Source: a virus (taxonomy: Duplodnaviria; Caudoviricetes). From it: DNA of 64,000 bases. The notes under the pieces are model-generated. The model saw only the letters and a program-made list of their open reading frames with translations, was not told the origin of the DNA and ran no database searches. Where the stretch lies: positions 1 to 64,000 of IMG/VR virus record IMGVR_UViG_3300046526_000553; one strand, 5' to 3'. Positions 3,488 through 58,579 of the stretch are shown piece by piece; the stretch's first letter is position 1; every line of letters begins with the position of its first letter. Both the position numbers and the translations under genes were made by a program.

Positions 3488-4060
3488 CTACAGGGGATTA
3501 TCGTCTTGAAGTCTTTGCATACGTTCTTTGTAGTTCTTTGCTTTATGACGATGAAATTTATTGTGACAATCATGGCACCAAGTTATTAAATTGTCTAATT
3601 TATTATTCATAAGTGTATGAGATGACATATTTCTGCCACGGTAATCTTTATGATGAACAACAAGTAATTTACGATTTGTTTCACCACAATTCTGACAGGT
3701 ATAATTATCTCGCTCAAGGACTTTTAATCTTATCATTCCCCAGCCCGTACCAGCAATTTTGCTTGTGTATTTATCCCACACATTTTTAGCAAGACGTTTT
3801 TTAGCTTCAGGGTTTGTAGCATAAAGCTTGCGAAGACTTGCGGCTCTTTTCTCGACAGCATCTCTGGGTTGTTTCTTTCCTGTTAATGAAGCACGCATCT
3901 TCTCCAGTGCTCCTGGTTTATGAACAGGATTATCTTCTAGGTTTCTCTTCTTTGTTATGGGGTTCGGGATTCCACGCATTGATTCGTAAAAACATTCACG
4001 AGAACAAAATCTATTACGAGGCGTAGGAGTAGGGTTGTCACATATTTCACATATTCGCAT
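3488..4060 (-). CDS. HNH endonuclease (homing type)
   Basis: RD.YTCQ.CG...VHH.D...N...NLITWCHDCH..H; N-terminal Zn ribbon; own promoter TTGACC-N17-TATACT, leaderless. Confidence 0.9.
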   Translation of the reverse strand: MRICEICDNPTPTPRNRFCSRECFYESMRGIPNPITKKRNLEDNPVHKPGALEKMRASLTGKKQPRDAVEKRAASLRKLYATNPEAKKRLAKNVWDKYTSKIAGTGWGMIRLKVLERDNYTCQNCGETNRKLLVVHHKDYRGRNMSSHTLMNNKLDNLITWCHDCHNKFHRHKAKNYKERMQRLQDDNPL

Positions 4061-4092
4061 GTTTTATAGTATATTAGCTTGGAGCTAATTGG

Positions 4093-6411
4093 TCAACCGG
4101 GGGCCAGAGAATCACTTCCACCAATTGTGCTTAAGCCTATCGTAAAGTAACTAGCAAGTATTTTTTCCTCCAGTTCCAATATCTGGCTCATAGGACTATC
4201 GTCAGTAAAGCTATGAGAAATACCAACGACGGTATACTCAGTATAGATAGGCAATATCTGTGGTTGAGTCAATGCTAATAATAGACCATATGGTGAATAT
4301 GAATAGGATTGTTGCTGTTGCATCAGGGCTAATAATAATCCACTAGGCATAAAAGAATAATCGGTTATATCATTAATGCCAAGGGTAACAGCATCCCCAA
4401 TCTGTAGTTGAGGAACTGGAGTTATATCAGCTACTATACGCTTGAACGGCGTTGAATAATCAGTAACTAAAACGGTTGCATTTGATTGTGCCGTGCTTGG
4501 ACTTTGTATGAGGTCATTTTCGATGAGTAATGGTTGCCCGTTATTGGTTGGGTTGCCCCCATAAAGTGCTATTGATGCTTGGTCTTGATATTCATAATTA
4601 ATTTGATAAGTAATTTTTGCCGGAGTACCCCATAATTCTAACTGAGTTATGAATACAGGCAACGAATATGTGCTAGCAAAGGTAACGAAATATTTACTAC
4701 CACTTAATGTTGCTGCACTGTCGGGCTGGTTAACAAGACTCGTACCAACTACAGAAACATATAATGGGACATTATTCCCAGAATTATCATCAGCAGTATT
4801 TGCTCTAAAGATGGATGTAGCAGGATTTGTTTGGTACCATAACGGGATTTTAACGCTTGAGACGGGGAGTACTCCAAAATCATCTTGAAAGTCTGCCTCG
4901 ATTGTTACAGTGGCACATGGTGTAGCCACAGAAGCTGAAAAGTATGTCGTCCCTGCCCAAGTATATAAATAATTGGAGGTCGTGGTTTTATTACCATCGA
5001 AATATGTGGGAGTAGCGCCAAAAGCTAACTGAACCATAACAGCATCTATGTTAACGACCTGAGATGTTGTGGGATATATTCTAATATCAAAAGATGTATG
5101 TGTGCCATCGGTTGTAAAGCTAGGCAAGCTTAATAAGTCCCAACTACTATCCAACACCACGGTGGCACTACCTAAGCTTACGGCATTTTCCACTGCTTCT
5201 ATTGTGATAACCGCACCAGGTGTACCTTGCACGCGACATTGAGCTACGTAGGCTGTATTGATTGCACAATTTATAGTAGTTGAGGCATATTGTGACGTGC
5301 CAGTTGAAGTCAAGCTAGCGAAATAAATATCGTTCCATCCCGCTCCTTCAGATGGAACAAGCGCACCGCCAGTAACTGACCAATTGATGATACTGTCAAT
5401 ATAAAATGTAGGGTTTCTGCATAAATTCGTAAAGGTCGTTGTACTATTAGGCGCAGGTACTGCTGTGGCAACAGTTTGTTCCCATATTTTTTGATTACCT
5501 TGTACAGCCCGTGGATTTGCCAATATTTGTACATCATTAATAATAGGAGTATCCTCAGGCGTTAGCTGGAACGTATCAGTTTCATCAAATGTCCATACCG
5601 GTGAATCATTGGTGATGAGATGCTGGCGATTCCAGAAGTGTGCTATACCATTTTCATCAAAAAAGAACAGAGCTTGTTCGGCTTCGCATAGGGCTTGAAT
5701 AATATCTCCAATAAATAATCCGTAAGGTGAATAGAAACCAATTTGTGACTGAGTAGACTGCTCTGCAATATATTGACTTGTAGCTAGACCGGCTTCACTT
5801 AATAAATCACCGATTATTACATTAGCATATTGATTTATGTAGCAACCATTGTTAGCTGCAGCTATTGGTCCGGCTGCTTTTGACTGAAAAGATTGTAGAA
5901 AATCGAAGAAATCAAATCCATCCAATGTTATCTGCCGATGGTCAATATCATTTTGGGGCTTGGTTGTCTGCCCGTAGAATAAGTTAACCGTCTCATCTAC
6001 GCTATTTGTGCCAGCCGTAAAACCAGTGGCAATATTTATCGGTCTACCAGTAATAATATAGTTTCCAATAACAGGGTCATAGCCTGGCATGAAAAGTAAT
6101 GTCGTGTTATTTAATTGTACCTCACTCTGGGCTCCAAATGCTCCATAAGTATATTGCCCGATGTTTCGTGTTACCGAACCACTTAACATATAAGCAGCGT
6201 AATCAGTATATTTATATTGATTGGCAAAAGATGGAGCTGTACCGGAACCAGGGATGAAATCATTGCCCCCTATCGAACTTGTGCCAATCGTAAAGAATCC
6301 ATATCCCACATTTTCCTGTTTTGTCCAACTGATATTTACACCATAAATAGGGTAGTGCAGAGTGTTATTACCGCCAGAAGAGGCTGTGAAATTTGTTGAT
6401 ACCTGTTGCAT
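4093..6411 (-). CDS. Tail tip/hub protein with inserted carbohydrate-binding-like domain
   Basis: Two genes after the TMP; IQALCEAE..LFFFDENG hub motif; central NLCRNPTF...IDAVMV..G..YFDG CBM-like jelly roll. Confidence 0.75.
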   Translation of the reverse strand: MQQVSTNFTASSGGNNTLHYPIYGVNISWTKQENVGYGFFTIGTSSIGGNDFIPGSGTAPSFANQYKYTDYAAYMLSGSVTRNIGQYTYGAFGAQSEVQLNNTTLLFMPGYDPVIGNYIITGRPINIATGFTAGTNSVDETVNLFYGQTTKPQNDIDHRQITLDGFDFFDFLQSFQSKAAGPIAAANNGCYINQYANVIIGDLLSEAGLATSQYIAEQSTQSQIGFYSPYGLFIGDIIQALCEAEQALFFFDENGIAHFWNRQHLITNDSPVWTFDETDTFQLTPEDTPIINDVQILANPRAVQGNQKIWEQTVATAVPAPNSTTTFTNLCRNPTFYIDSIINWSVTGGALVPSEGAGWNDIYFASLTSTGTSQYASTTINCAINTAYVAQCRVQGTPGAVITIEAVENAVSLGSATVVLDSSWDLLSLPSFTTDGTHTSFDIRIYPTTSQVVNIDAVMVQLAFGATPTYFDGNKTTTSNYLYTWAGTTYFSASVATPCATVTIEADFQDDFGVLPVSSVKIPLWYQTNPATSIFRANTADDNSGNNVPLYVSVVGTSLVNQPDSAATLSGSKYFVTFASTYSLPVFITQLELWGTPAKITYQINYEYQDQASIALYGGNPTNNGQPLLIENDLIQSPSTAQSNATVLVTDYSTPFKRIVADITPVPQLQIGDAVTLGINDITDYSFMPSGLLLALMQQQQSYSYSPYGLLLALTQPQILPIYTEYTVVGISHSFTDDSPMSQILELEEKILASYFTIGLSTIGGSDSLAPG

Positions 6412-6834: not shown

Positions 6835-9800
6835 TTAAATAGGTCGGATACCGATAGATGGTAATGAAGAAGCAGTTCCATGCTGGCGTGCTATCTGTTG
6901 AAGGGATTGATAAATAGTGGTTGCAAGCTGCTGGGCTTGTTGCTGATTCCCCATAATAGGTCCTTCGAGATGGATATGTAATTCACCGACCATTGGGGTA
7001 CCACCACTCACCTTATTACCAGAAACTGAACCTACTTGTCCAGCACCTTGTCTAACCCCCGCTGCCGTTGATACACCCAAATCAGTAGCCGTTTTTACCG
7101 CTGATTGTTTCCCGCTCATCAAACCCTTTTGGAGCCCAGCATCTATATTCTGACCAATCTCTGCAAAAATGGATGATGGCGAATGAATCCCAAGCGTATT
7201 CTTTAGCCCCCCTTGTATTGCAACCCCAATATCTTTCATCGCAGTAACCACAAAACCAGTTTCACCTCTAATACCATTAATGAGCCCAGTTATAATATCT
7301 TTACCAATTTGGGTAAATCCTGTAACGGTCTTTGCTAACATTGACTGTGAGCTATTAATGATTTGTTGCGTTTCATTGGAAGATATGACCGAACTCCCCG
7401 AGGGCAGGTTTACAAGTTCTGGGCCTTTCTCGCCAACAAGAGCCAGCCCCCCTTTAAAGTTTTCAACTCCACCAGCAAAATGAGGCGTACCTTTTTTATT
7501 AGACTGGAGATTACCGAAATTACCTTGTATAGAACCCGACATCTGCATATTCCCAACAAAGCCTGACTGAGCAAATGCACCGCCTTTACTGCCACCACCA
7601 ACCATCGCATTTAATAAGTTTAACTGAGTTGTTCCTTGTGATGCAGGACCAGATATTTTGATTCCAGTTAGTTGGGTGCCAACTTTTAAGGTAATGCCAA
7701 CGACTGGAGTAGCTTTCAACGTAGCAATTTTATCAACCATACTACCCAGTTTCTGATTAGTAGTATCTACAAGCTTATTATAATTTATCTGAGCATTACC
7801 ACTATTTTTAAGTGCATCCTTATATGCATCAGTATCAGCGTTAACTATTGATTGCTGCCTAGCCACAGCATTGAGTTTGTCGGCAGATGTCTGTGCAAGA
7901 CCATTAACTATTTGTTGTTGCTTTTGCACAATAGGGGAGTCTGCACCATATTTTTCAATATCTTTATTTAATGTATCCTGTGCTCTACTATATGCATCAG
8001 TTGCTTTTTGACTTTGACCCTGTAACTTTGTGAGTAGCTGCTGGTCATTCGTAAGCGTATTAGTGGCTTTGTCAACTGCACGATGGGCTCCTGCAAGATT
8101 TTGCGCTGCGCTAGTGGAGAAATTCATACTTCTTGCCCACTGGTCCCAACCGGGAGTGCCTGATTTGATATCTTTATTAATCCCGAGTATATGGTCTTCT
8201 GCAGGTTTTACCCACTTATTAAAAACGAAAAATGCTGTGCCCAAACCAGCTAAAGCAGCGCCCGCGATTAATGCACCCGCCCCTAGTGCGCCCAATCCTG
8301 CCGCTCCGCCAGCCTCAGCAGCAGTTGAACCAAGCAGCCCATTTGCCTCAGCAGCTAACGAGGTTGCACCTGCCGCACTTCTGCTTATTCCCACCAATGA
8401 GCCTAGGTTTCCCCCCAATTTCGTTATGGCCTTAGTAGCAAGCAAAGCTCCTTCGGCATTTTTCCCAAAGCCAAGGGCTAACTTCACTGTCATGAATAAT
8501 TCTTCAGCTTTTTTAGCTGCTATTACTGCTCCTGTAAAACCAACTATGGCTATTGTCGTGAGAATTATGGCAGCTGCCAATTTCTTGTGATAAGTTATAA
8601 AATCAGCAATAGGCTTTAATATTTCAACAAGTGCTTTAGTCATTGAAAGTAAAACAGGTATGAAGGCAGTGCCTAGCGCTATGCCAATCGTACTCAGATT
8701 TTGATGAAGCTCACTCATTTGTTGATTAAGCGTACCTTGCATTTCTTTCCAGCCAAGTACTTTATCTGTAGCTGTTCCCATAGATTTGCTAACGGCATTA
8801 ACGTTATCATTGAAGGTCTGTGTATGTGCCCCCGTTAACATTAGAGCAGTTGTTAACCCTGTGCTGCCACCAGTAGCCTTGGATAGTGCCGCTTCAAAAC
8901 TTAGTGCAGCAGGAGTACCAGCCTTTAATTGTGTATTAAATGAATGCGCCTGTGTGAAAGTGTTTTCAAATTGTTGACCAAGCGTTTCATTAGCTGGAGA
9001 CATATCACGAATAGCTTTGCGATAATCTTTCCAAGATATGGTTCCTGCTAGAAGTTCCTTAGCAACTCTTTGCAAACCATCAGGCATTACTGCCAATTCT
9101 TCCTTTAAATCTTGTGTAGCTGACACAGAATTCTGTAGAGCTTTCTGAAGAACTAAGCCTGACGGTCCCATACGGCTCAGAATAGCATCACTAAGCCTCT
9201 CTATCGTGTTAGTCAAACCTTCTTTACCAAGATTCTTTGCTACTTCCTGTGAACTAATACCAAGCTGCAACATTTCCTTTGTCTGGACATTACTTGGGTT
9301 AGACAAAGATTGTATAGTATGCCGTAAATCTTGAGTTGCCTGTTGTGCCGTCATGCCTTGCGCCGTCATGGTGGCAATAGCACCGGCAACTTGGGCAAAT
9401 GAAATACCAACTGCTGATGCGATAGGCAAAACACTCGAAAGAGATGATGAGAATAACTGTAGCGTTGTTTTACCACGTGAAACAGCAGTAATCATGCCAT
9501 TTACTACTTGAGCAGATTTATCAGCACTCAAAGCATAGGAATTTAAAACTGTACTAGCAGCATCGGTAACGGTAGTGGCGTCAGCTTGTTCATCTCTAGC
9601 GCCTTTAGCAGCAGCCATCAAAACTTTAAGACCGTTAGCACCATGAAACCCTGCCGATTCAACGTAGTACATGGCATTTGCAAGTTCAGTTGAGGCTATT
9701 CCTGTGGTTCTGGCTACATTTAGAACCCCATCTGAAACCATTTTTAGGTTTCCTTCAGATTCACCTGCCGAGGTAACAAGCTTGGTCATTAATGTTTGAA

Positions 9801-10353
9801 ATTCGGCAGCAGATTTTGTTGTTTTATATATTAAATAACCAATGCCCACACCAGCAGCAGCTACCCCCACACCCAATTTGCCCATAGACAAACCGCCAGC
9901 TTCAGCAGTGGTTGCAATCCTCCTTGTGGAGGCAGCTGCTCTATCGTTAGCTACCGCCACCTTATCTATACCACCACTGCCTTCTATGGCAGCTGCACCT
10001 AAAGCTCTTAAGCCAGTTGCTTCTTCTTTTATAGAAGCCAAAAGACCATCCACGGCAGTTGAAAGTTTGCCATTGGAAACTATTACTCTATCATTGGCTA
10101 ATGCTATTTTATCAACACCGGCACTGCCCTCTATGGCAGCCGCACCCAATGCCCTCAAACTTGTGGCTTCTATTTTTGCAGTAGCCGAAACATTTTCTAA
10201 TGATTTAGCGCTTGCTTCACTGCCTCTAGCAATCTGTGCATTGACTTCATCGCTAATTGCACCTAATGCTTTTAGCGATTCTCCAACTTTAGCTATTCCA
10301 GCACTTGCTTCATCTATTGCTCGTATGATTATATTTAACTGCGTTGTATCCAT
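6835..10353 (-). CDS. Tail tape measure protein (TP901-like core)
   Basis: 1172 aa Ala/Gly-rich helical protein; ELANAMYYVESAG; FAGG...LVGEKGPELV and LGIHSPS motifs. Confidence 0.95.
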   Translation of the reverse strand: MDTTQLNIIIRAIDEASAGIAKVGESLKALGAISDEVNAQIARGSEASAKSLENVSATAKIEATSLRALGAAAIEGSAGVDKIALANDRVIVSNGKLSTAVDGLLASIKEEATGLRALGAAAIEGSGGIDKVAVANDRAAASTRRIATTAEAGGLSMGKLGVGVAAAGVGIGYLIYKTTKSAAEFQTLMTKLVTSAGESEGNLKMVSDGVLNVARTTGIASTELANAMYYVESAGFHGANGLKVLMAAAKGARDEQADATTVTDAASTVLNSYALSADKSAQVVNGMITAVSRGKTTLQLFSSSLSSVLPIASAVGISFAQVAGAIATMTAQGMTAQQATQDLRHTIQSLSNPSNVQTKEMLQLGISSQEVAKNLGKEGLTNTIERLSDAILSRMGPSGLVLQKALQNSVSATQDLKEELAVMPDGLQRVAKELLAGTISWKDYRKAIRDMSPANETLGQQFENTFTQAHSFNTQLKAGTPAALSFEAALSKATGGSTGLTTALMLTGAHTQTFNDNVNAVSKSMGTATDKVLGWKEMQGTLNQQMSELHQNLSTIGIALGTAFIPVLLSMTKALVEILKPIADFITYHKKLAAAIILTTIAIVGFTGAVIAAKKAEELFMTVKLALGFGKNAEGALLATKAITKLGGNLGSLVGISRSAAGATSLAAEANGLLGSTAAEAGGAAGLGALGAGALIAGAALAGLGTAFFVFNKWVKPAEDHILGINKDIKSGTPGWDQWARSMNFSTSAAQNLAGAHRAVDKATNTLTNDQQLLTKLQGQSQKATDAYSRAQDTLNKDIEKYGADSPIVQKQQQIVNGLAQTSADKLNAVARQQSIVNADTDAYKDALKNSGNAQINYNKLVDTTNQKLGSMVDKIATLKATPVVGITLKVGTQLTGIKISGPASQGTTQLNLLNAMVGGGSKGGAFAQSGFVGNMQMSGSIQGNFGNLQSNKKGTPHFAGGVENFKGGLALVGEKGPELVNLPSGSSVISSNETQQIINSSQSMLAKTVTGFTQIGKDIITGLINGIRGETGFVVTAMKDIGVAIQGGLKNTLGIHSPSSIFAEIGQNIDAGLQKGLMSGKQSAVKTATDLGVSTAAGVRQGAGQVGSVSGNKVSGGTPMVGELHIHLEGPIMGNQQQAQQLATTIYQSLQQIARQHGTASSLPSIGIRPI

Positions 10354-11007: not shown

Positions 11008-11970
11008 TCAATTATCGAGTAAAGTCTTAACTAAGATTTTCTCTATATTTTTTTCTTCTATATATGGGATGCGTAGCAGGTCCCAGCCATTATCTTTTGC
11101 CCATTGAGTTTTATGGGCATCATTAGCTTTCAGGCGTTTAAATGCTTTTTCCCCTCCAAAATTAGATGACGGTTTAAAATGTTGTGTTCCATCATATTCA
11201 ACTAGCAATCTGTGCTCGGGTATGCAAAAATCATATCGTAATAAGCTTATACCATCGTTTTTAGATTTAAGTGTGGGGAAACTTTTTTCAAATGTGTGAA
11301 AGATATCATTATCTTTTAACCATCTATCAATTCTCTGGACGTTTTTTGAAAATAATAAAGTTACACATTTTCGACAACCTTTTTCCCTGAGATGATTAGT
11401 GGGTGTAACATAAAATTCGCCATGTTTGTTACAGATAACCGTAACTTTTTTATGAGCACCTTTGTATAGAGCCTCTGAGTAATCATATCTATCTTTTCCG
11501 TGAATAAATTGAGCCTGCTTAATAAATGTTTGTGTGGATTTTCTTAAAACGTCACCTCCCCTTTTGGCACTACATTTAGGGCATCCGTGACCTTTATAAA
11601 GTGTAACTGGGGGAGCATAAAATATTCCATGTAATTTACATATAACTTTAACTTTAGAATGATTGTTAATATAAACCGCTAAAGAGAAGTCGTACTTTTC
11701 TATTCCATGTACAGACATAACACATTGTAGAAAATTATTGGCTGACTCCAGCCTCTTTTTATCATTCCTATTGGCATCTGCACACAACGGGCACCCACGC
11801 TTCCTTAGATGATTGTTAGGGATTTGTCCCCACGTCCCATGTATACGACATTTTATAATAACTTTGGAATAATTATTTTTATACTTCACTTGCGAATAAT
11901 CATATCTATCGCTACCATGAATTAGTTTTGCCTTGGCGATAAAATCTTGCGTGTTTGATTTAGATGACAT
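11008..11970 (-). CDS. Homing-type endonuclease with repeated Zn-ribbon (DUF723-like) units and C-terminal PD-(D/E)XK domain
   Basis: 3x YDYS..Y.....KV.I.C..HG...GCP.C; RYDF...LVEYDG.QH; promoter TTGATA-N17-TATAAT, leaderless ATG at 11970. Confidence 0.85.
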   Translation of the reverse strand: MSSKSNTQDFIAKAKLIHGSDRYDYSQVKYKNNYSKVIIKCRIHGTWGQIPNNHLRKRGCPLCADANRNDKKRLESANNFLQCVMSVHGIEKYDFSLAVYINNHSKVKVICKLHGIFYAPPVTLYKGHGCPKCSAKRGGDVLRKSTQTFIKQAQFIHGKDRYDYSEALYKGAHKKVTVICNKHGEFYVTPTNHLREKGCRKCVTLLFSKNVQRIDRWLKDNDIFHTFEKSFPTLKSKNDGISLLRYDFCIPEHRLLVEYDGTQHFKPSSNFGGEKAFKRLKANDAHKTQWAKDNGWDLLRIPYIEEKNIEKILVKTLLDN

Positions 11971-12012
11971 ATAAACATTATACACCAGCAATAAAGAAAT
12001 ATCAATAGACAA

Positions 12013-13017
12013 TCAAGATGCAGGAGCTGCGAGATAAGAACTTACCAATGAAGTGTGAGCAATACTCAAACCATAACCAAAATCAAGGCTATAAACAGAT
12101 TGGAAAGTTATCGATTGCTTGACGAGGCCGTCCAAACTCTGTTCATTTTTCCAGTCAGTCAAATAACAAACAGGCATAGTAAATGTTATGGTCGGATGAG
12201 CAGCGACACCAATTGTTACACGAGAGTTTGTGATAGTTACTTGAACATATTGTGATGAATTATTAAAGCGTAATGTTTTATATGTTTGGGAATCATACAC
12301 TAAAGTTATTTCACCAGTAATAGTCGTACTTTGAGCATAAATATTGCTCGGAGATAATGACCCAATAACAAAATATGGCGTAACATTATTATTGACAGTA
12401 AGTTTAAAACTTTCTGCAGGGATAGATGCAGCCGAACCAATACCACTAGCCTGATTAGCGAATTTACAAACTAAATCGCGTGCAATGAATTCTTCTTCTG
12501 TAACATATCCCCTAGTAGTTGATGTCACTGTTGAAGGTAATGATATGAAATTGGACACATGTCTAACAAAATCTCCAGCTTTTGCATCAACCTCGAATGT
12601 ATTAACAAGAGCCCCAGGGAATTGTTCATCAACATTGGGGTCTTGACGAGTTATAGTTATACTTTGTAGCTGGTTGTTCTGGCTTTCCGTATATGTATGG
12701 TCGAAAACTATTGTCTCACCTGCATGGGTGACTTTTGAATAAGCCCCCTGCAAACCATAAAGAATTACACCGATAGCACGGTCTGTGACTTTTCCCGCAA
12801 TCTGTCCCTCAGCCCATTGCTCAGTAAGTTCAGCCCCTGAATCAGCGTTAAGAACACCTAATGCTGACTTATTAAGTAAAGTCGTACCTTTGTCTTCAAA
12901 ATCGGCTGTTTCCCAACGGAGATTATACCATGGTGCAACAGGCGTATTGTGAACCGCTTCGATAGCCACACCATATTCAACGTTTCGGCCGGTAAAACTA
13001 CCACTATTTAACGCCAT
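12013..13017 (-). CDS. Major tail tube protein
   Basis: 334 aa; N-terminal G.A.E...TP motif, GA.V..FE; position upstream of chaperone and TMP; RBS GGAGG. Confidence 0.85.
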   Translation of the reverse strand: MALNSGSFTGRNVEYGVAIEAVHNTPVAPWYNLRWETADFEDKGTTLLNKSALGVLNADSGAELTEQWAEGQIAGKVTDRAIGVILYGLQGAYSKVTHAGETIVFDHTYTESQNNQLQSITITRQDPNVDEQFPGALVNTFEVDAKAGDFVRHVSNFISLPSTVTSTTRGYVTEEEFIARDLVCKFANQASGIGSAASIPAESFKLTVNNNVTPYFVIGSLSPSNIYAQSTTITGEITLVYDSQTYKTLRFNNSSQYVQVTITNSRVTIGVAAHPTITFTMPVCYLTDWKNEQSLDGLVKQSITFQSVYSLDFGYGLSIAHTSLVSSYLAAPAS

Positions 13018-13113: not shown

Positions 13114-13569
13114 CTAACCATTATCTTGGTCCACCGAAACTTTGGCAGTGACAGTCACTAAACAATCCAAAAGCGCACCAACACTAGATTGGACAACACT
13201 CCACGTGGATGGCGCAGGAACTACTATTTGACCGGTACCATCCAAACTGTTAGAATTATCTACTGCATCAAGTACACTATCCACCAAAATTCGTCCTTGT
13301 GAAAAAGCACTTTCATAGCCACCATTATCTGTCCCGAGTGGCACAAGAATATCTATGTGGAAAGTATAACTACGAAGGTTCTGAACGGTTGTCAAATATG
13401 TAGAGGGGCTATCTGATGGCGATACGGTAGCCAATGGATAGCCATCGGTAGATTCAACCGTGGGATATTCTACAATTTCAACAAAAGCGTCGCTGCCTTC
13501 CTGCTGTATATTTTGTAAGACATTAACTATAGCCGCACTTATAGTTGTGAAATTGCCCGCCTGACTCAT
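13114..13569 (-). CDS. Tail terminator/completion protein
   Basis: 151 aa acidic protein with YP...V.P and sLdG motifs, directly upstream of the tube gene. Confidence 0.75.
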   Translation of the reverse strand: MSQAGNFTTISAAIVNVLQNIQQEGSDAFVEIVEYPTVESTDGYPLATVSPSDSPSTYLTTVQNLRSYTFHIDILVPLGTDNGGYESAFSQGRILVDSVLDAVDNSNSLDGTGQIVVPAPSTWSVVQSSVGALLDCLVTVTAKVSVDQDNG

Positions 13570-13575
13570 AGTCTA

Positions 13576-13605
13576 AATGTACCTAATCCAAATGCAATCT
13601 GTCAC
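13576..13605 (-). promoter_or_regulatory. 18-bp-spacer promoter GTGACA-N18-TACATT (leaderless)
   Basis: -10 element 6 nt before the ATG at 13569. Confidence 0.6.
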
Positions 13606-13628
13606 TTTCTATAAAAAACCTAGGCAAC

Positions 13629-13657
13629 TTGACATTTTCCTAATGTTGGTGTAAGAT
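13629..13657 (+). promoter_or_regulatory. sigma70 promoter TTGACA-N17-TAAGAT for the large ncRNA
   Basis: Perfect -35, 17-bp spacer, no credible downstream CDS. Confidence 0.75.
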
Positions 13658-13662
13658 GAGTT

Positions 13663-14178
13663 GTGTTGGCTGATTGATTATTGATAATCAATATAAATCA
13701 GTTGATGCACCTTACCCCCCTAACTAACAAATGTTAGATTGTCATGGATTGTGCCATTAAAGTTGTTACCCTCACTTCTGAAATGCGCTTTTTTCCTTAC
13801 AGAGGTTTCGAAAAACCCTGGGTTTCGACCTTGGGATGAACGAAGTAGTTGTTGCCAACCACGTTCGGTGCGAGCGATAGCATAAAGTGCGTCCCCACAT
13901 GTGCTTTTGGCAAGCCATACATGTGCGAAAGGTGTCTTCATTGACACGGGTGGCTAGAAGCCCGATACTTTTGGTTTGGGCAGTTCACCTCTTTTACCCT
14001 CAGAGATAAGGATGCATTCCATGGCAGACTAATCCCTTCAATTTTTATTTTTACTCCCTGCCCGGAATAGTAAAAATTAGCATACGTTGTGTTATCCAAG
14101 AATTGAAGGGTGTAGAAAGCCTTCTAGTATATGGTCAAGATGCCCACCCTCTTGGCTGGTAGCTAGAAGGCTTTTATG
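13663..14178 (+). ncRNA. Candidate large structured ncRNA (~515 nt), unclassified
   Basis: Promoter, more than 10 helices including long-range 13734-13748/14018-14032 and 14034-14046/14098-14110, G-U pairs favouring the + strand, terminal hairpin plus U-tract. Confidence 0.7.
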
Positions 14179-14920
14179 TTTGAGCGTTATTCATTTCATA
14201 CCGAGTCTGTATACGAACATAACCACCATCTATCCCGTGGTCGGCTTCAATAGCAAGTTCATTATCTCCAGGCACAATAGCCCAAAAGCTACTGTCATTA
14301 ATATATTTGAGCAAACTATTCCCGATAACTTCATGGCTATACATATCTACCACGATTTCATGGTCGGCAGGTATTACGCAACTCAAACCAATAAAGGAAT
14401 GTACCGTATTATTCTCAAGCCGTGGATAATCTAATGGTCCTTGGAAGCTAACTTCAATATACATATCCTTTGTTTCATAATTTTTATAGCTTATTTCTTG
14501 TTTGTATTGGTCGAGCTTTTCAGGCATTTCGAAAGAAATGGTATAATCATGTGACATTGAATGCCGTTTTATTTTTTCAAGCGTAGGCGAATAACCATAG
14601 CCTGTCATTTCACCGTTAATTTTATCTTGTAATAACTTTTTGTCTTGCTTAGATTTTTTAGCTATTTCTTTCTGCCAGGCAATATACCGTTCGTTCATTA
14701 ATCTATTTGTCACCTGAGCGCTGTATGCATACATATAAGGCCAGTAATCATGGTCTTTGAAGTCTTCATTCTTTAAAGCCTTAGCTCCATGTTTTTTTTC
14801 TGGTTTAACTTTACGAACAAATAAATAAGTTTTGCAGTTTATATATTTTATGGGGATATTTCTTGTATTTATAGAGAATAAGTCTAATTGTGAATCAGTT
14901 GTTTTATATAACCCCATCAA
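14174..14920 (-). CDS. Hypothetical protein with C-terminal siphovirus Dit-like segment
   Basis: C-terminal IVVD...FWAIVPGDNEL resembles phage tail-component C-termini; own TTGATT-N17-TATAAA promoter. Confidence 0.5.
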   Translation of the reverse strand: MMGLYKTTDSQLDLFSINTRNIPIKYINCKTYLFVRKVKPEKKHGAKALKNEDFKDHDYWPYMYAYSAQVTNRLMNERYIAWQKEIAKKSKQDKKLLQDKINGEMTGYGYSPTLEKIKRHSMSHDYTISFEMPEKLDQYKQEISYKNYETKDMYIEVSFQGPLDYPRLENNTVHSFIGLSCVIPADHEIVVDMYSHEVIGNSLLKYINDSSFWAIVPGDNELAIEADHGIDGGYVRIQTRYEMNNAQT

Positions 14921-29478: not shown

Positions 29479-29901
29479 CTAATTCTTACGAGGTCGCCCA
29501 CGCCCACGCTTTTCAGTAGAGTCAACTTTATCGTCTGATGCAGTCAATACTTTTTCAAACTCAGTGGTTGGCTCTTCGCCTTTCGGTGTGGCGATAGTTT
29601 CGACATCTTCCTCATAATCTTCTTCATCAGCTAGTTCAGGGTGCAAGCGAAACAATAGCTTCTGTTTTTCCTCATCGTTCAATGTGCCATTGACGAGCTG
29701 TAAGTGTTCATCCCCCGCTTGGTTATATAACCGTACTTTCGGATAGAAAACTTGCCCGAATTCATCTTGCATATTAACATTCAATAGTTTTCTAGCAATG
29801 TCTTCTGGAACTTGAAATATTTCATTAGCTCTATAAGGACGTAATATTTCAGTTGTCACTAATGTAACCATTTTTGGTTTCGATTTAGAACGTGCTGCCA
29901 C
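29479..29901 (-). CDS. Capsid-associated small protein with acidic tail and C-terminal AT-hook-like motif
   Basis: GTG start with GGAGG; ends KRGRGRPRKN. Confidence 0.65.
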   Translation of the reverse strand: MAARSKSKPKMVTLVTTEILRPYRANEIFQVPEDIARKLLNVNMQDEFGQVFYPKVRLYNQAGDEHLQLVNGTLNDEEKQKLLFRLHPELADEEDYEEDVETIATPKGEEPTTEFEKVLTASDDKVDSTEKRGRGRPRKN

Positions 29902-30022
29902 GTGTTTACCCTCCGTTATGTTGTAAAGGGCATTGTATACTCAATCGGAAATAAAATCAAATTTATTTAATAGTTGGCAATTATCCCTTGACGACATATA
30001 TAATGGGCGTATAATAAGAGGT

Positions 30023-30658: not shown

Positions 30659-30676
30659 ACTAGAATAGCAACTTGT

Positions 30677-30805
30677 TTACTTCTTGTCAATATTCTTAGC
30701 AGCTTTATTAAGCACCTTATCAAAATCAGCTTTGGCTCCGCTGCGGCCGCCAGCTTTTATAAACAACTTTAATTTCTTGTCGGTTAACTTTTTAGTTCCA
30801 GCCAT
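30677..30805 (-). CDS. Small basic IS passenger protein (42 aa)
   Basis: RBS GAGGG; MAGTKKLTDKKLKLFIKAGGRSGAKADFDKVLNKAAKNIDKK. Confidence 0.6.
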   Translation of the reverse strand: MAGTKKLTDKKLKLFIKAGGRSGAKADFDKVLNKAAKNIDKK

Positions 30806-31007
30806 ATAGTTACCCTCTTCCTATATGCCATTTGTCGCGAAAAGTAGATGTGTGTACATGTACGGATTACGTAACCTTACGTTAAACGTACATTAACTTA
30901 AGTATACACACGCCCTGCAAACAGCACAAGCATTATCACTATGTAAGTTTATTAGCATTAAAACGACACTAACGTATTACTTATATATGTTCTGAAGGTA
31001 CAATTGC

Positions 31008-58544: not shown

Positions 58545-58579
58545 AAATTACCCTCAAAATTATCTATGCTTCTATTAAA

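Follow-up and report, generated by a model that had tools for sequence, protein, structure and literature searches.

The window analysed here comprises the first 64,000 nucleotides (nt) of the IMG/VR phage record IMGVR_UViG_3300046526_000553, which is 143,778 base pairs (bp) long and estimated to be about 94% complete. In its tail gene region, a gap between two minus-strand genes holds a plus-strand sequence (13664-14180) that is very probably an RNA gene, an enlarged phage-borne homologue of a structured RNA encoded between dprA and pth in bacteria of the class Saccharimonadia (the dprA-pth RNA). The family profile (A4) matches the window at 13698-13795 with an nhmmer E value of 3.9e-12, and what is new at this locus is a full-length, expanded and remodelled phage copy of a bacterial RNA.

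Organisation of the tail gene region

The gap is surrounded by a siphovirus-type tail module encoded on the minus strand, with the following features (aa, amino acids).

6835-10353 (minus): tape measure gene
11008-12012 (minus): gene for a homing endonuclease of HNH or treble-clef type, directly flanked by the tail tube gene on one side and the tail chaperone and tape measure genes on the other
12013-13017 (minus): tail tube gene
13114-13569 (minus): tail terminator gene
13570-14173: intergenic gap, flanked by two minus-strand genes
14174-14920 (minus): 248-aa Dit-like gene, with a weak C-terminal match to SPP1 Dit

A glycosyltransferase island lies beyond the Dit-like gene. The phage genome has a guanine plus cytosine (G+C) content of 39.6% and carries 17 transfer RNA (tRNA) genes, clustered beyond the window at genome positions 66558-72215 and all on the minus strand. 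An initial annotation, made by reading the letters of the window, had found no credible coding sequence in the gap, and this is borne out: the open reading frames (ORFs) present are all 75 aa or shorter and lie in sequence that related phages lack, and those at 13720-13947 (-), 13938-14099 (-), 13739-13885 (+) and 13887-14009 (+) have no Pfam or PHROG match.

Boundaries and fold of the window RNA

The predicted plus-strand unit of about 517 nt is delimited by a promoter and a terminator hairpin, both located where the initial annotation had placed them. The -35 TTGAC and -10 TAnnnT of the promoter are conserved in two related phage contigs (L003 and L004), and bacterial members of the family have an extended -10 element, TGcTAaaAT, in the equivalent position. 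The terminal hairpin consists of 13-bp and 9-bp helices at 14116-14174 (14116-14128 paired with 14162-14174) and is followed by UUUUAUGUUU. It overlaps the stop codon of the convergent 248-aa gene and is likely to combine a terminator with the conserved C-rich loop of the family. The parts of the RNA and its promoter are listed below.

13629-13657 (+): sigma-70-type promoter TTGACA-N17-TAAGAT, predicted by consensus scan, with a start predicted near 13664
13665-13706 (+): P1, the 5' hairpin (rod), from the minimum-energy fold; the equivalent bacterial hairpin (helix 1) has compensatory changes
13707-13723 (+): J1, single-stranded C-rich junction GCACCUUACCCCCC with the first TTACCC; aligns with family block ACCUUaUAcCCCC
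13724-13737 (+): P3, hairpin CUAAC-AAAU-GUUAG followed by AUUG, with no differences among the window, L003 and L004
13740-13752 (+): P4, 5' strand, pairing with 14014-14026 in the minimum-energy fold
13760-13777 (+): P5, hairpin with the conserved loop UGUUACCCUC and the second TTACCC; family block AAGUUGUUACCCUCCACUU
13780-14012 (+): phage-specific insert of about 230 nt within P4, with nested hairpins and a third TTACCCUCA at 13994-14002, predicted from a single-sequence fold
14014-14026 (+): P4, 3' strand, a weak, in-order match to family block gcgcUCUAaaaCAaACUAA
14027-14042 (+): junction GACUAAU, then the 5' strand of helix B, CCCUUCAAU (14034-14042); family block ACUAAyCCCUUUAAs
14043-14101 (+): reduced 3' domain of 59 nt, with two hairpins where bacteria have a four-way junction, from the minimum-energy fold
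14102-14110 (+): helix B, 3' strand AUUGAAGGG, pairing with 14034-14042 over 9 bp
14116-14182 (+): terminal hairpin with the 9-nt loop UGCCCACCC (14141-14149), then a U-tract

The plus strand folds at -175.5 kcal/mol (z -6.32, equalled by 0 of 100 shuffles), more strongly than the minus strand (-146.6 kcal/mol, z -2.64). Nearly every helix listed in the initial annotation was recovered in the minimum-energy fold, including the 5' rod, the GGUUU/AAACC, GGGAUG/CGUCCC, CACAUGUG/UACAUGUG and GUGUC/GACAC helices and, at exactly the proposed coordinates, the closing helix pairing 14034-14046 with 14098-14110. The long-range helix also forms, but about 6 nt from where it had been drawn, at 13740-13748 with 14018-14026. 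P3, P4, P5 and helix B can be forced jointly at a cost of 4.5 kcal/mol in the window fold. The TTACCC repeat had been correctly noted (13712, 13766 and 13994, with TTACCCTCA present twice); two of the three copies coincide with conserved C-rich elements of the bacterial family, the junction after P1 and the loop of P5, and the third lies in the phage-specific insert. The claim of a large structured non-coding RNA is thereby upheld for the plus strand, with independently defined boundaries.

No catalogued RNA family accounts for the sequence. Rfam 15 gave zero matches at the gathering score over the whole window and only chance-level matches at E values up to 10 over 13300-14500. The models for GOLLD, ROOL, HEARO, OLE, raiA, RNase P, group I/II introns, 6S and the signal recognition particle (SRP) RNA had no match in the window, and ARAGORN detected neither a tRNA nor a transfer-messenger RNA (tmRNA) there, in agreement with the earlier impression that tmRNA, RNase P and intron signatures were missing. 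Rfam likewise had no match in L003, L004 or two bacterial members, a blastn comparison with 50,697 GenBank phages gave none, and no description of a Saccharibacteria dprA-pth RNA family was found in the literature searched.

The dprA-pth RNA family of Saccharibacteria

A motif derived from the three phage copies, CTAAC-N3-6-GTTAGRTTG-N15-26-GTTACCCTC, matches 116 contigs in a one-genome-per-species prokaryote collection, once each. Nearly all belong to Candidatus Saccharibacteria, Saccharimonadales or Saccharimonadia. In metagenomes, more than 120 contigs carry the motif among the matches listed. One match, on the 4.4-kilobase (kb) contig DATHYB010000089.1, is labelled Candidatus Limnocylindrales, which is probably a binning error. 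The RNA gene is single-copy per genome and lies between dprA and pth, in the order topA and dprA (both divergent), RNA, pth and der (both convergent); at least one of these four genes adjoins the RNA in 210 of 216 extracted matches, among which L003 and L004 alone have phage neighbours. Model R1, which covers the 5' domain, found the RNA in 30 of 121 sampled genomes of class Saccharimonadia and in 6 of 151 genomes of a phylum-wide sample, all six in the same class; these counts are lower bounds because the filters were strict. The bacterial units are 310-450 nt long, with the extended -10 promoter and a terminator hairpin, and two members fold at z -8.5 and -7.5.

Compensatory base changes give strong support to an RNA structure common to the bacterial family. 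Across 82 sequences, 94.4% of cells in the four 5'-domain helices are paired, against 28-50% with slid partners, and 14 pairs are changed on both sides, a value matched by 0 of 500 shuffles. Double-sided changes occur at 7 pairs of P4. The P3 stem is invariant in all 82 sequences, as is the loop of P5, whose stem swaps A-U for C-G. In the 3' part, CCCUUUAAs, directly after ACUAA, pairs over a long range with sUUrAAGGG to form helix B, the end pair of which is C:G in 152 bacterial sequences, G:C in 39, A:U in 3 and U:A in 1; in a reduced bacterial clade the opposite end of the helix also has a compensatory pair (CGCC with GGC). Helix B encloses a four-way junction of 100-170 nt with covarying helices, whose hairpins give the highest mutual-information pairs, all of them Watson-Crick swaps. 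Most of this junction is lacking from one reduced clade of bacterial members. Four elements are near-invariant and predicted to be unpaired: ACCUUAUACCCCC, the P5 loop GUUACCCUCC, ACUAA and the terminal loop GCGGUGCCCACCCCCUC. A pseudoknot may form between the 5' C-run and GGGGUGGG; in the alifold structure of the 3' part, GGGG is instead paired with a nearby CCCC.

Identity of this RNA with tmRNA or RNase P RNA is ruled out, both genes lying elsewhere in five host genomes. In the Saccharibacteria genomes G001-G005, RNase P RNA and tmRNA were each detected in all five, but a quick first-look search with the Rfam 6S, small SRP and large SRP models gave no match in any, reflecting either divergence beyond the models or a miss by that search. 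The RNA was for this reason considered as a candidate SRP or 6S RNA and set aside, since it lacks both a GNRA-capped helix-8 motif and a rod-with-bubble shape.

Homology of the window RNA to the bacterial family

Weaker nhmmer matches follow that of the 5' domain in the order of the family, at 13985-14041 (junction and 5' strand of helix B) and 14103-14205 (3' strand of helix B and terminal hairpin). Model R1 scores 88.9 bits in L004, 88.1 in L003 and 39.2 (E 2.2e-6) in the window, the lower score of the window arising largely because the global alignment cannot bridge its insert. With these matches the RNA ceases to be the orphan that the initial annotation had taken it for, and the proposal of a new large phage RNA class gives way to a family that is chromosomal and syntenic in Saccharibacteria. 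The phage genome contains one copy; a weak nhmmer match at 30660-30720 (E 1) proved to be a ribosome-binding-site complement together with a promoter-like stretch and was rejected as a second.

In the 5' domain the window has the C-rich junction, an identical P3, a P4 and a P5 that can form, and the P5 loop GUUACCCUC(C). Its helix B has two compensatory differences from the bacterial consensus, a U:A end pair and C-G where bacteria have U-G. The terminal hairpin is in the right place, and its loop has 3 mismatches to the 15-nt family loop; as good a match turned up somewhere in the window in 37 of 100 shuffles. Two features of the family are absent: the four-way junction, for which the window has its two hairpins between the helix-B strands, and the topA-dprA-RNA-pth-der synteny, the flanks here being phage tail genes. 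The insert has no match to the family profile or Rfam and is missing from L003, L004 and the bacterial members, in which the equivalent is a variable hairpin of 20-60 nt.

Copies in related phages

The tail tube proteins of L003 and L004 are respectively 66% and 63% identical to that of the window, and both contigs have the same gene order: Dit-like gene, gap (504 and 983 nt), tail terminator, tail tube. A third tail-tube-related contig has a 330-nt gap. The more distant relatives L005-L007 have the order neck, terminator, tube, with neither island nor gap. The gaps of the window, L003 and L004 align at the promoter boxes and over some 200 nt of 5' sequence. P4 is formed by UGUCAUGGA with UCCAUGGCA in the window, UGCUAUAGUCGC with GCGACUAUAGUA in L003 and UGCCUUGGA with UCCAGGGCA in L004, and the differences among the three are compensatory. 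Helix B of L003 (CCCCUUCAUC with GAUGGAGGGG) is, like that of the window, compensatory relative to the bacterial consensus; only about 40 nt separate its strands, and the terminal loop of L003 has 1 mismatch to the family loop. All three phage copies thus keep the 5' domain; those of the window and L003 also keep the helix-B clamp and, probably, the C-rich terminal loop.

Some further features of these contigs were recorded. In L004, the approximately 720 nt past the 5' domain (3711-4430, on the minus strand of the locus) contain only ORFs of 84 aa or shorter, fold at z -3.8 and have no Rfam match; this contig also has an endonuclease-related insertion after its tube gene. L003 carries three tRNA genes at 7718-7961.

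Searches of IMG/VR with single flanking proteins found no close relatives, and a tail terminator profile found one distant contig, from which the RNA is absent. A strict motif scan of IMG/VR for further full-length phage copies returned 0, and the single match of a relaxed scan was attributed to chance, as it lies in a high-GC coding region and has no R1 match. Among viral contigs, full-length copies were found only in the three of one clade and in IMG/VR contig L325 (IMGVR_UViG_3300049064_000004). L325 is classed as viral and carries a full-length RNA of the bacterial family at about 7950-8360 (+) (nhmmer 226 bits), and, on the opposite strand at 6863-6877 (-), another hairpin with this loop; the contig is a candidate phage, prophage edge or host fragment.

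The terminal-loop hairpin in other phages

The terminal loop of the family, searched for as the exact 15-mer GGTGCCCACCCCCTC, occurs in 86 IMG/VR contigs, which we take, from our own rough estimate for a collection of about 5x10^10 bases, to be about the number expected by chance. In 50 of the 86 it forms the loop of a hairpin of at least 6 bp, with stems that differ in sequence. These 50 contigs are all of moderate G+C content (about 40-60%); the other 36, including all of the contigs highest in G+C (about 70%), have no such hairpin. Most of the loop hairpins (43 of 50) lie outside ORFs of at least 120 aa, and the contexts checked are phage genes, two of them recurrent: a portal-like gene followed by a 270-aa gene, and a position downstream of an endolysin. 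The full RNA is present in only one of the 50 (L325), so the loop hairpin appears to be a module that phages use alone, and the clade of the window is unusual in carrying the whole RNA.

In at least 8 of these contigs (numbered within L253-L338, for example L259:2840-2960, L278, L281, L289, L295, L306, L307 and L309), the hairpin is part of a longer conserved unit, GUUGAU-hairpin-ACCAGC-N4-GCUGGC, between the portal-like gene and the 270-aa gene. This unit may be a separate small phage RNA motif.

Proposed role and alternative explanations

The RNA gene resembles a self-contained 'moron' unit, with a host-type promoter and a terminator, on the strand opposite the late tail genes. This arrangement suggests that it is transcribed independently of the tail genes, presumably by the host RNA polymerase and in the direction opposite to the late tail operon. 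The phages have kept those elements that neither vary nor pair in the host RNA, a pattern suggesting contact with a partner. The phage RNA might then show its conserved C-rich single-stranded elements to the partner of the host RNA, whether a protein or a G-rich RNA (ribosome-binding sites, for instance), and so divert or take over the role of the host RNA during infection. Taken alone, this mechanism, in which the phage RNA is a mimic or substitute of the host RNA, is put forward tentatively. The wider proposal is more doubtful: that large phages of one clade took over and remodelled a host RNA of central importance, keeping its partner-binding core (the C-rich loops, P3 and the scaffold of P4 and helix B) as a mimic that hijacks a host factor also recognising the loop hairpin of the approximately 50 contigs. 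A protein partner that reads the loops, as the alternative to pairing with ribosome-binding sites, would fit the occurrence of hairpin-only modules in phage operons.

Several points weigh against homology with the bacterial RNA, the mimicry proposed from it, or the host assignment. The insert and the reduced 3' domain were modelled by single-sequence folding alone, covariation within the phages was counted by eye from three copies, and helix B is not seen in its usual form in L004. The P5 loop of the window is one C shorter than the bacterial loop and its terminal loop has the 3 mismatches described above; given this divergence, the phage RNA may bind a partner other than that of the host RNA. 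The host assignment rests on the RNA, and tail-tube relatives in 3 of 401 Saccharimonadia genomes are, at 23-28% identity, too distant to lend it weight.

A more specific version of the mechanism, compatible with homology, would make the RNA a regulator of the RNAIII or RsaE-RoxS type, whose C-rich loops (UUACCCUC twice, ACCCCCC and CCCACCC) pair with G-rich ribosome-binding sites and block or tune the translation of a subset of phage or host messenger RNAs (mRNAs). In its favour, TTACCCTC occurs 7 times on the plus strand of the 143.8-kb genome and 0 times on the minus strand; besides the two copies in the RNA, three are exact 8-nt complements of ribosome-binding sites of minus-strand mRNAs, which share the layout GAGGGUAA-N3-4-start.

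29906-29913 (minus-strand mRNA): site of a 140-aa gene with its start at 29901
30810-30817 (minus-strand mRNA): site of a basic 42-aa ORF with its start at 30805
58548-58555 (minus-strand mRNA): site of a small ORF with its start at about 58544

A further TTACCCTC site lies at genome position 70663. Judged by the established anti-Shine-Dalgarno sequence of the 16S tail, the GUAA extension is not complementary to the usual tail, and one of the C-rich loops caps the terminator hairpin, as in RNAIII. However, in three host genomes GAGGGTAA outnumbers its reversed control by a factor of only about 2.3, as any Shine-Dalgarno-like word would be expected to, and 10-12-nt complements of the two conserved loops show no enrichment in five genomes. 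The near-invariance of 15-17-nt loops across the class also exceeds what short Shine-Dalgarno pairing would need. Regulation of this kind is considered unlikely.

As to origin, a decaying piece of host DNA, in which the RNA would be a functionless pseudogene, could explain why R1 scores 39 bits in the window and 88 in L003 and L004, why the four-way junction is missing and why the terminal loop has diverged. Yet the RNA occupies the same position in three diverged phages with its promoter boxes intact, compensatory changes maintain P4 (in the window, L003 and L004) and helix B (in the window and L003), the fold has a z of -6.3, and the low R1 score comes largely from the insert; decay is accordingly very improbable. 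The phage-specific orphan class suggested by the initial annotation, likened to GOLLD and ROOL and with TTACCC as a multimerisation or protein-binding repeat, would suit the large size, the ornate fold, the empty Rfam search and a repeat that is real, but it is scarcely credible in the face of clear homology to a chromosomal, syntenic Saccharibacteria RNA and of full-length copies found, among viral contigs, only in L325 and the three of one phage clade. Small RNA genes are frequent integration sites of temperate phages, and identical runs of up to about 20 nt are common to the phage and host copies, but carriage of the sequence as an attachment site (attP) aimed at the host RNA gene is highly improbable because the gene is complete, with its own promoter, and not a 3' fragment, because the 94%-complete genome yielded no tyrosine integrase in a search that did not extend to serine recombinases, and because the divergence is compensatory, which selection for DNA identity would not produce; the element also lies in the middle of the tail module.

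Proposed link to Saccharibacteria

On the preferred reading, a phage-borne homologue of the dprA-pth RNA, the RNA gene and its host-type promoter are the main link that would tie this phage to Saccharimonadia. It would connect an uncultured, siphovirus-like phage of 144 kb to Saccharibacteria, which are tiny epibionts with very few known phages. The dprA-pth RNA itself is among the few large, deeply conserved RNAs of the candidate-phyla-radiation bacteria. One Saccharimonadia chromosome contig carrying RNase P RNA (G301:C1) has a distant, prophage-like tail-tube homologue at 288807-289793, 23 kb from its dprA-linked RNA at 311949-312095, so siphovirus-type prophage genes do occur in Saccharibacteria.

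The phage versions amount to a natural dissection of the RNA, in which the four-way junction can be dispensed with and P4 can accommodate 230 additional bases. Should capture and mimicry be true, they would provide a natural deletion map of the functional parts of the host RNA; should the phage RNA be silent or without effect, it would be a captured host gene of no consequence. Together, the approximately 50 hairpin-only phage contigs and the phage of the window point to a host factor that phages may have exploited repeatedly.

Comparison with known RNAs

Staphylococcus aureus RNAIII and RsaE/RoxS, regulatory RNAs, resemble the window RNA in having several C-rich loops, one of them on the terminator hairpin, and RNAIII is also about 0.5 kb long. 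They share no sequence or model similarity with the window RNA, whose loops are conserved far beyond a Shine-Dalgarno complement and whose pairing is only predicted. GOLLD and ROOL, which often occur in prophages and phages, resemble it in being large, highly structured and carried by phages; their models do not match it, and, unlike them, it has a single-copy syntenic chromosomal counterpart in the presumed host.

Phage-encoded tRNAs and tmRNA-like genes offer another parallel, that of a host-type RNA gene in a large phage, of which the 17 tRNA genes here are an example. The window copy differs from these in being remodelled and not near-identical to its counterpart.

The closest likeness is to the dprA-pth RNA itself. 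Both have the order P1, C-rich junction, CUAAC/GUUAG hairpin and P4 enclosing the hairpin with the GUUACCCUC(C) loop, followed by the ACUAA junction and helix B; a terminal hairpin comes last in each, its CCCACCC loop being a less certain point of agreement. Both also have their own sigma-70-type promoter and terminator and are convergent with the downstream gene. The window RNA is set apart by its phage context, by the approximately 230 nt added within P4 and by the two small hairpins that stand in place of the four-way junction.

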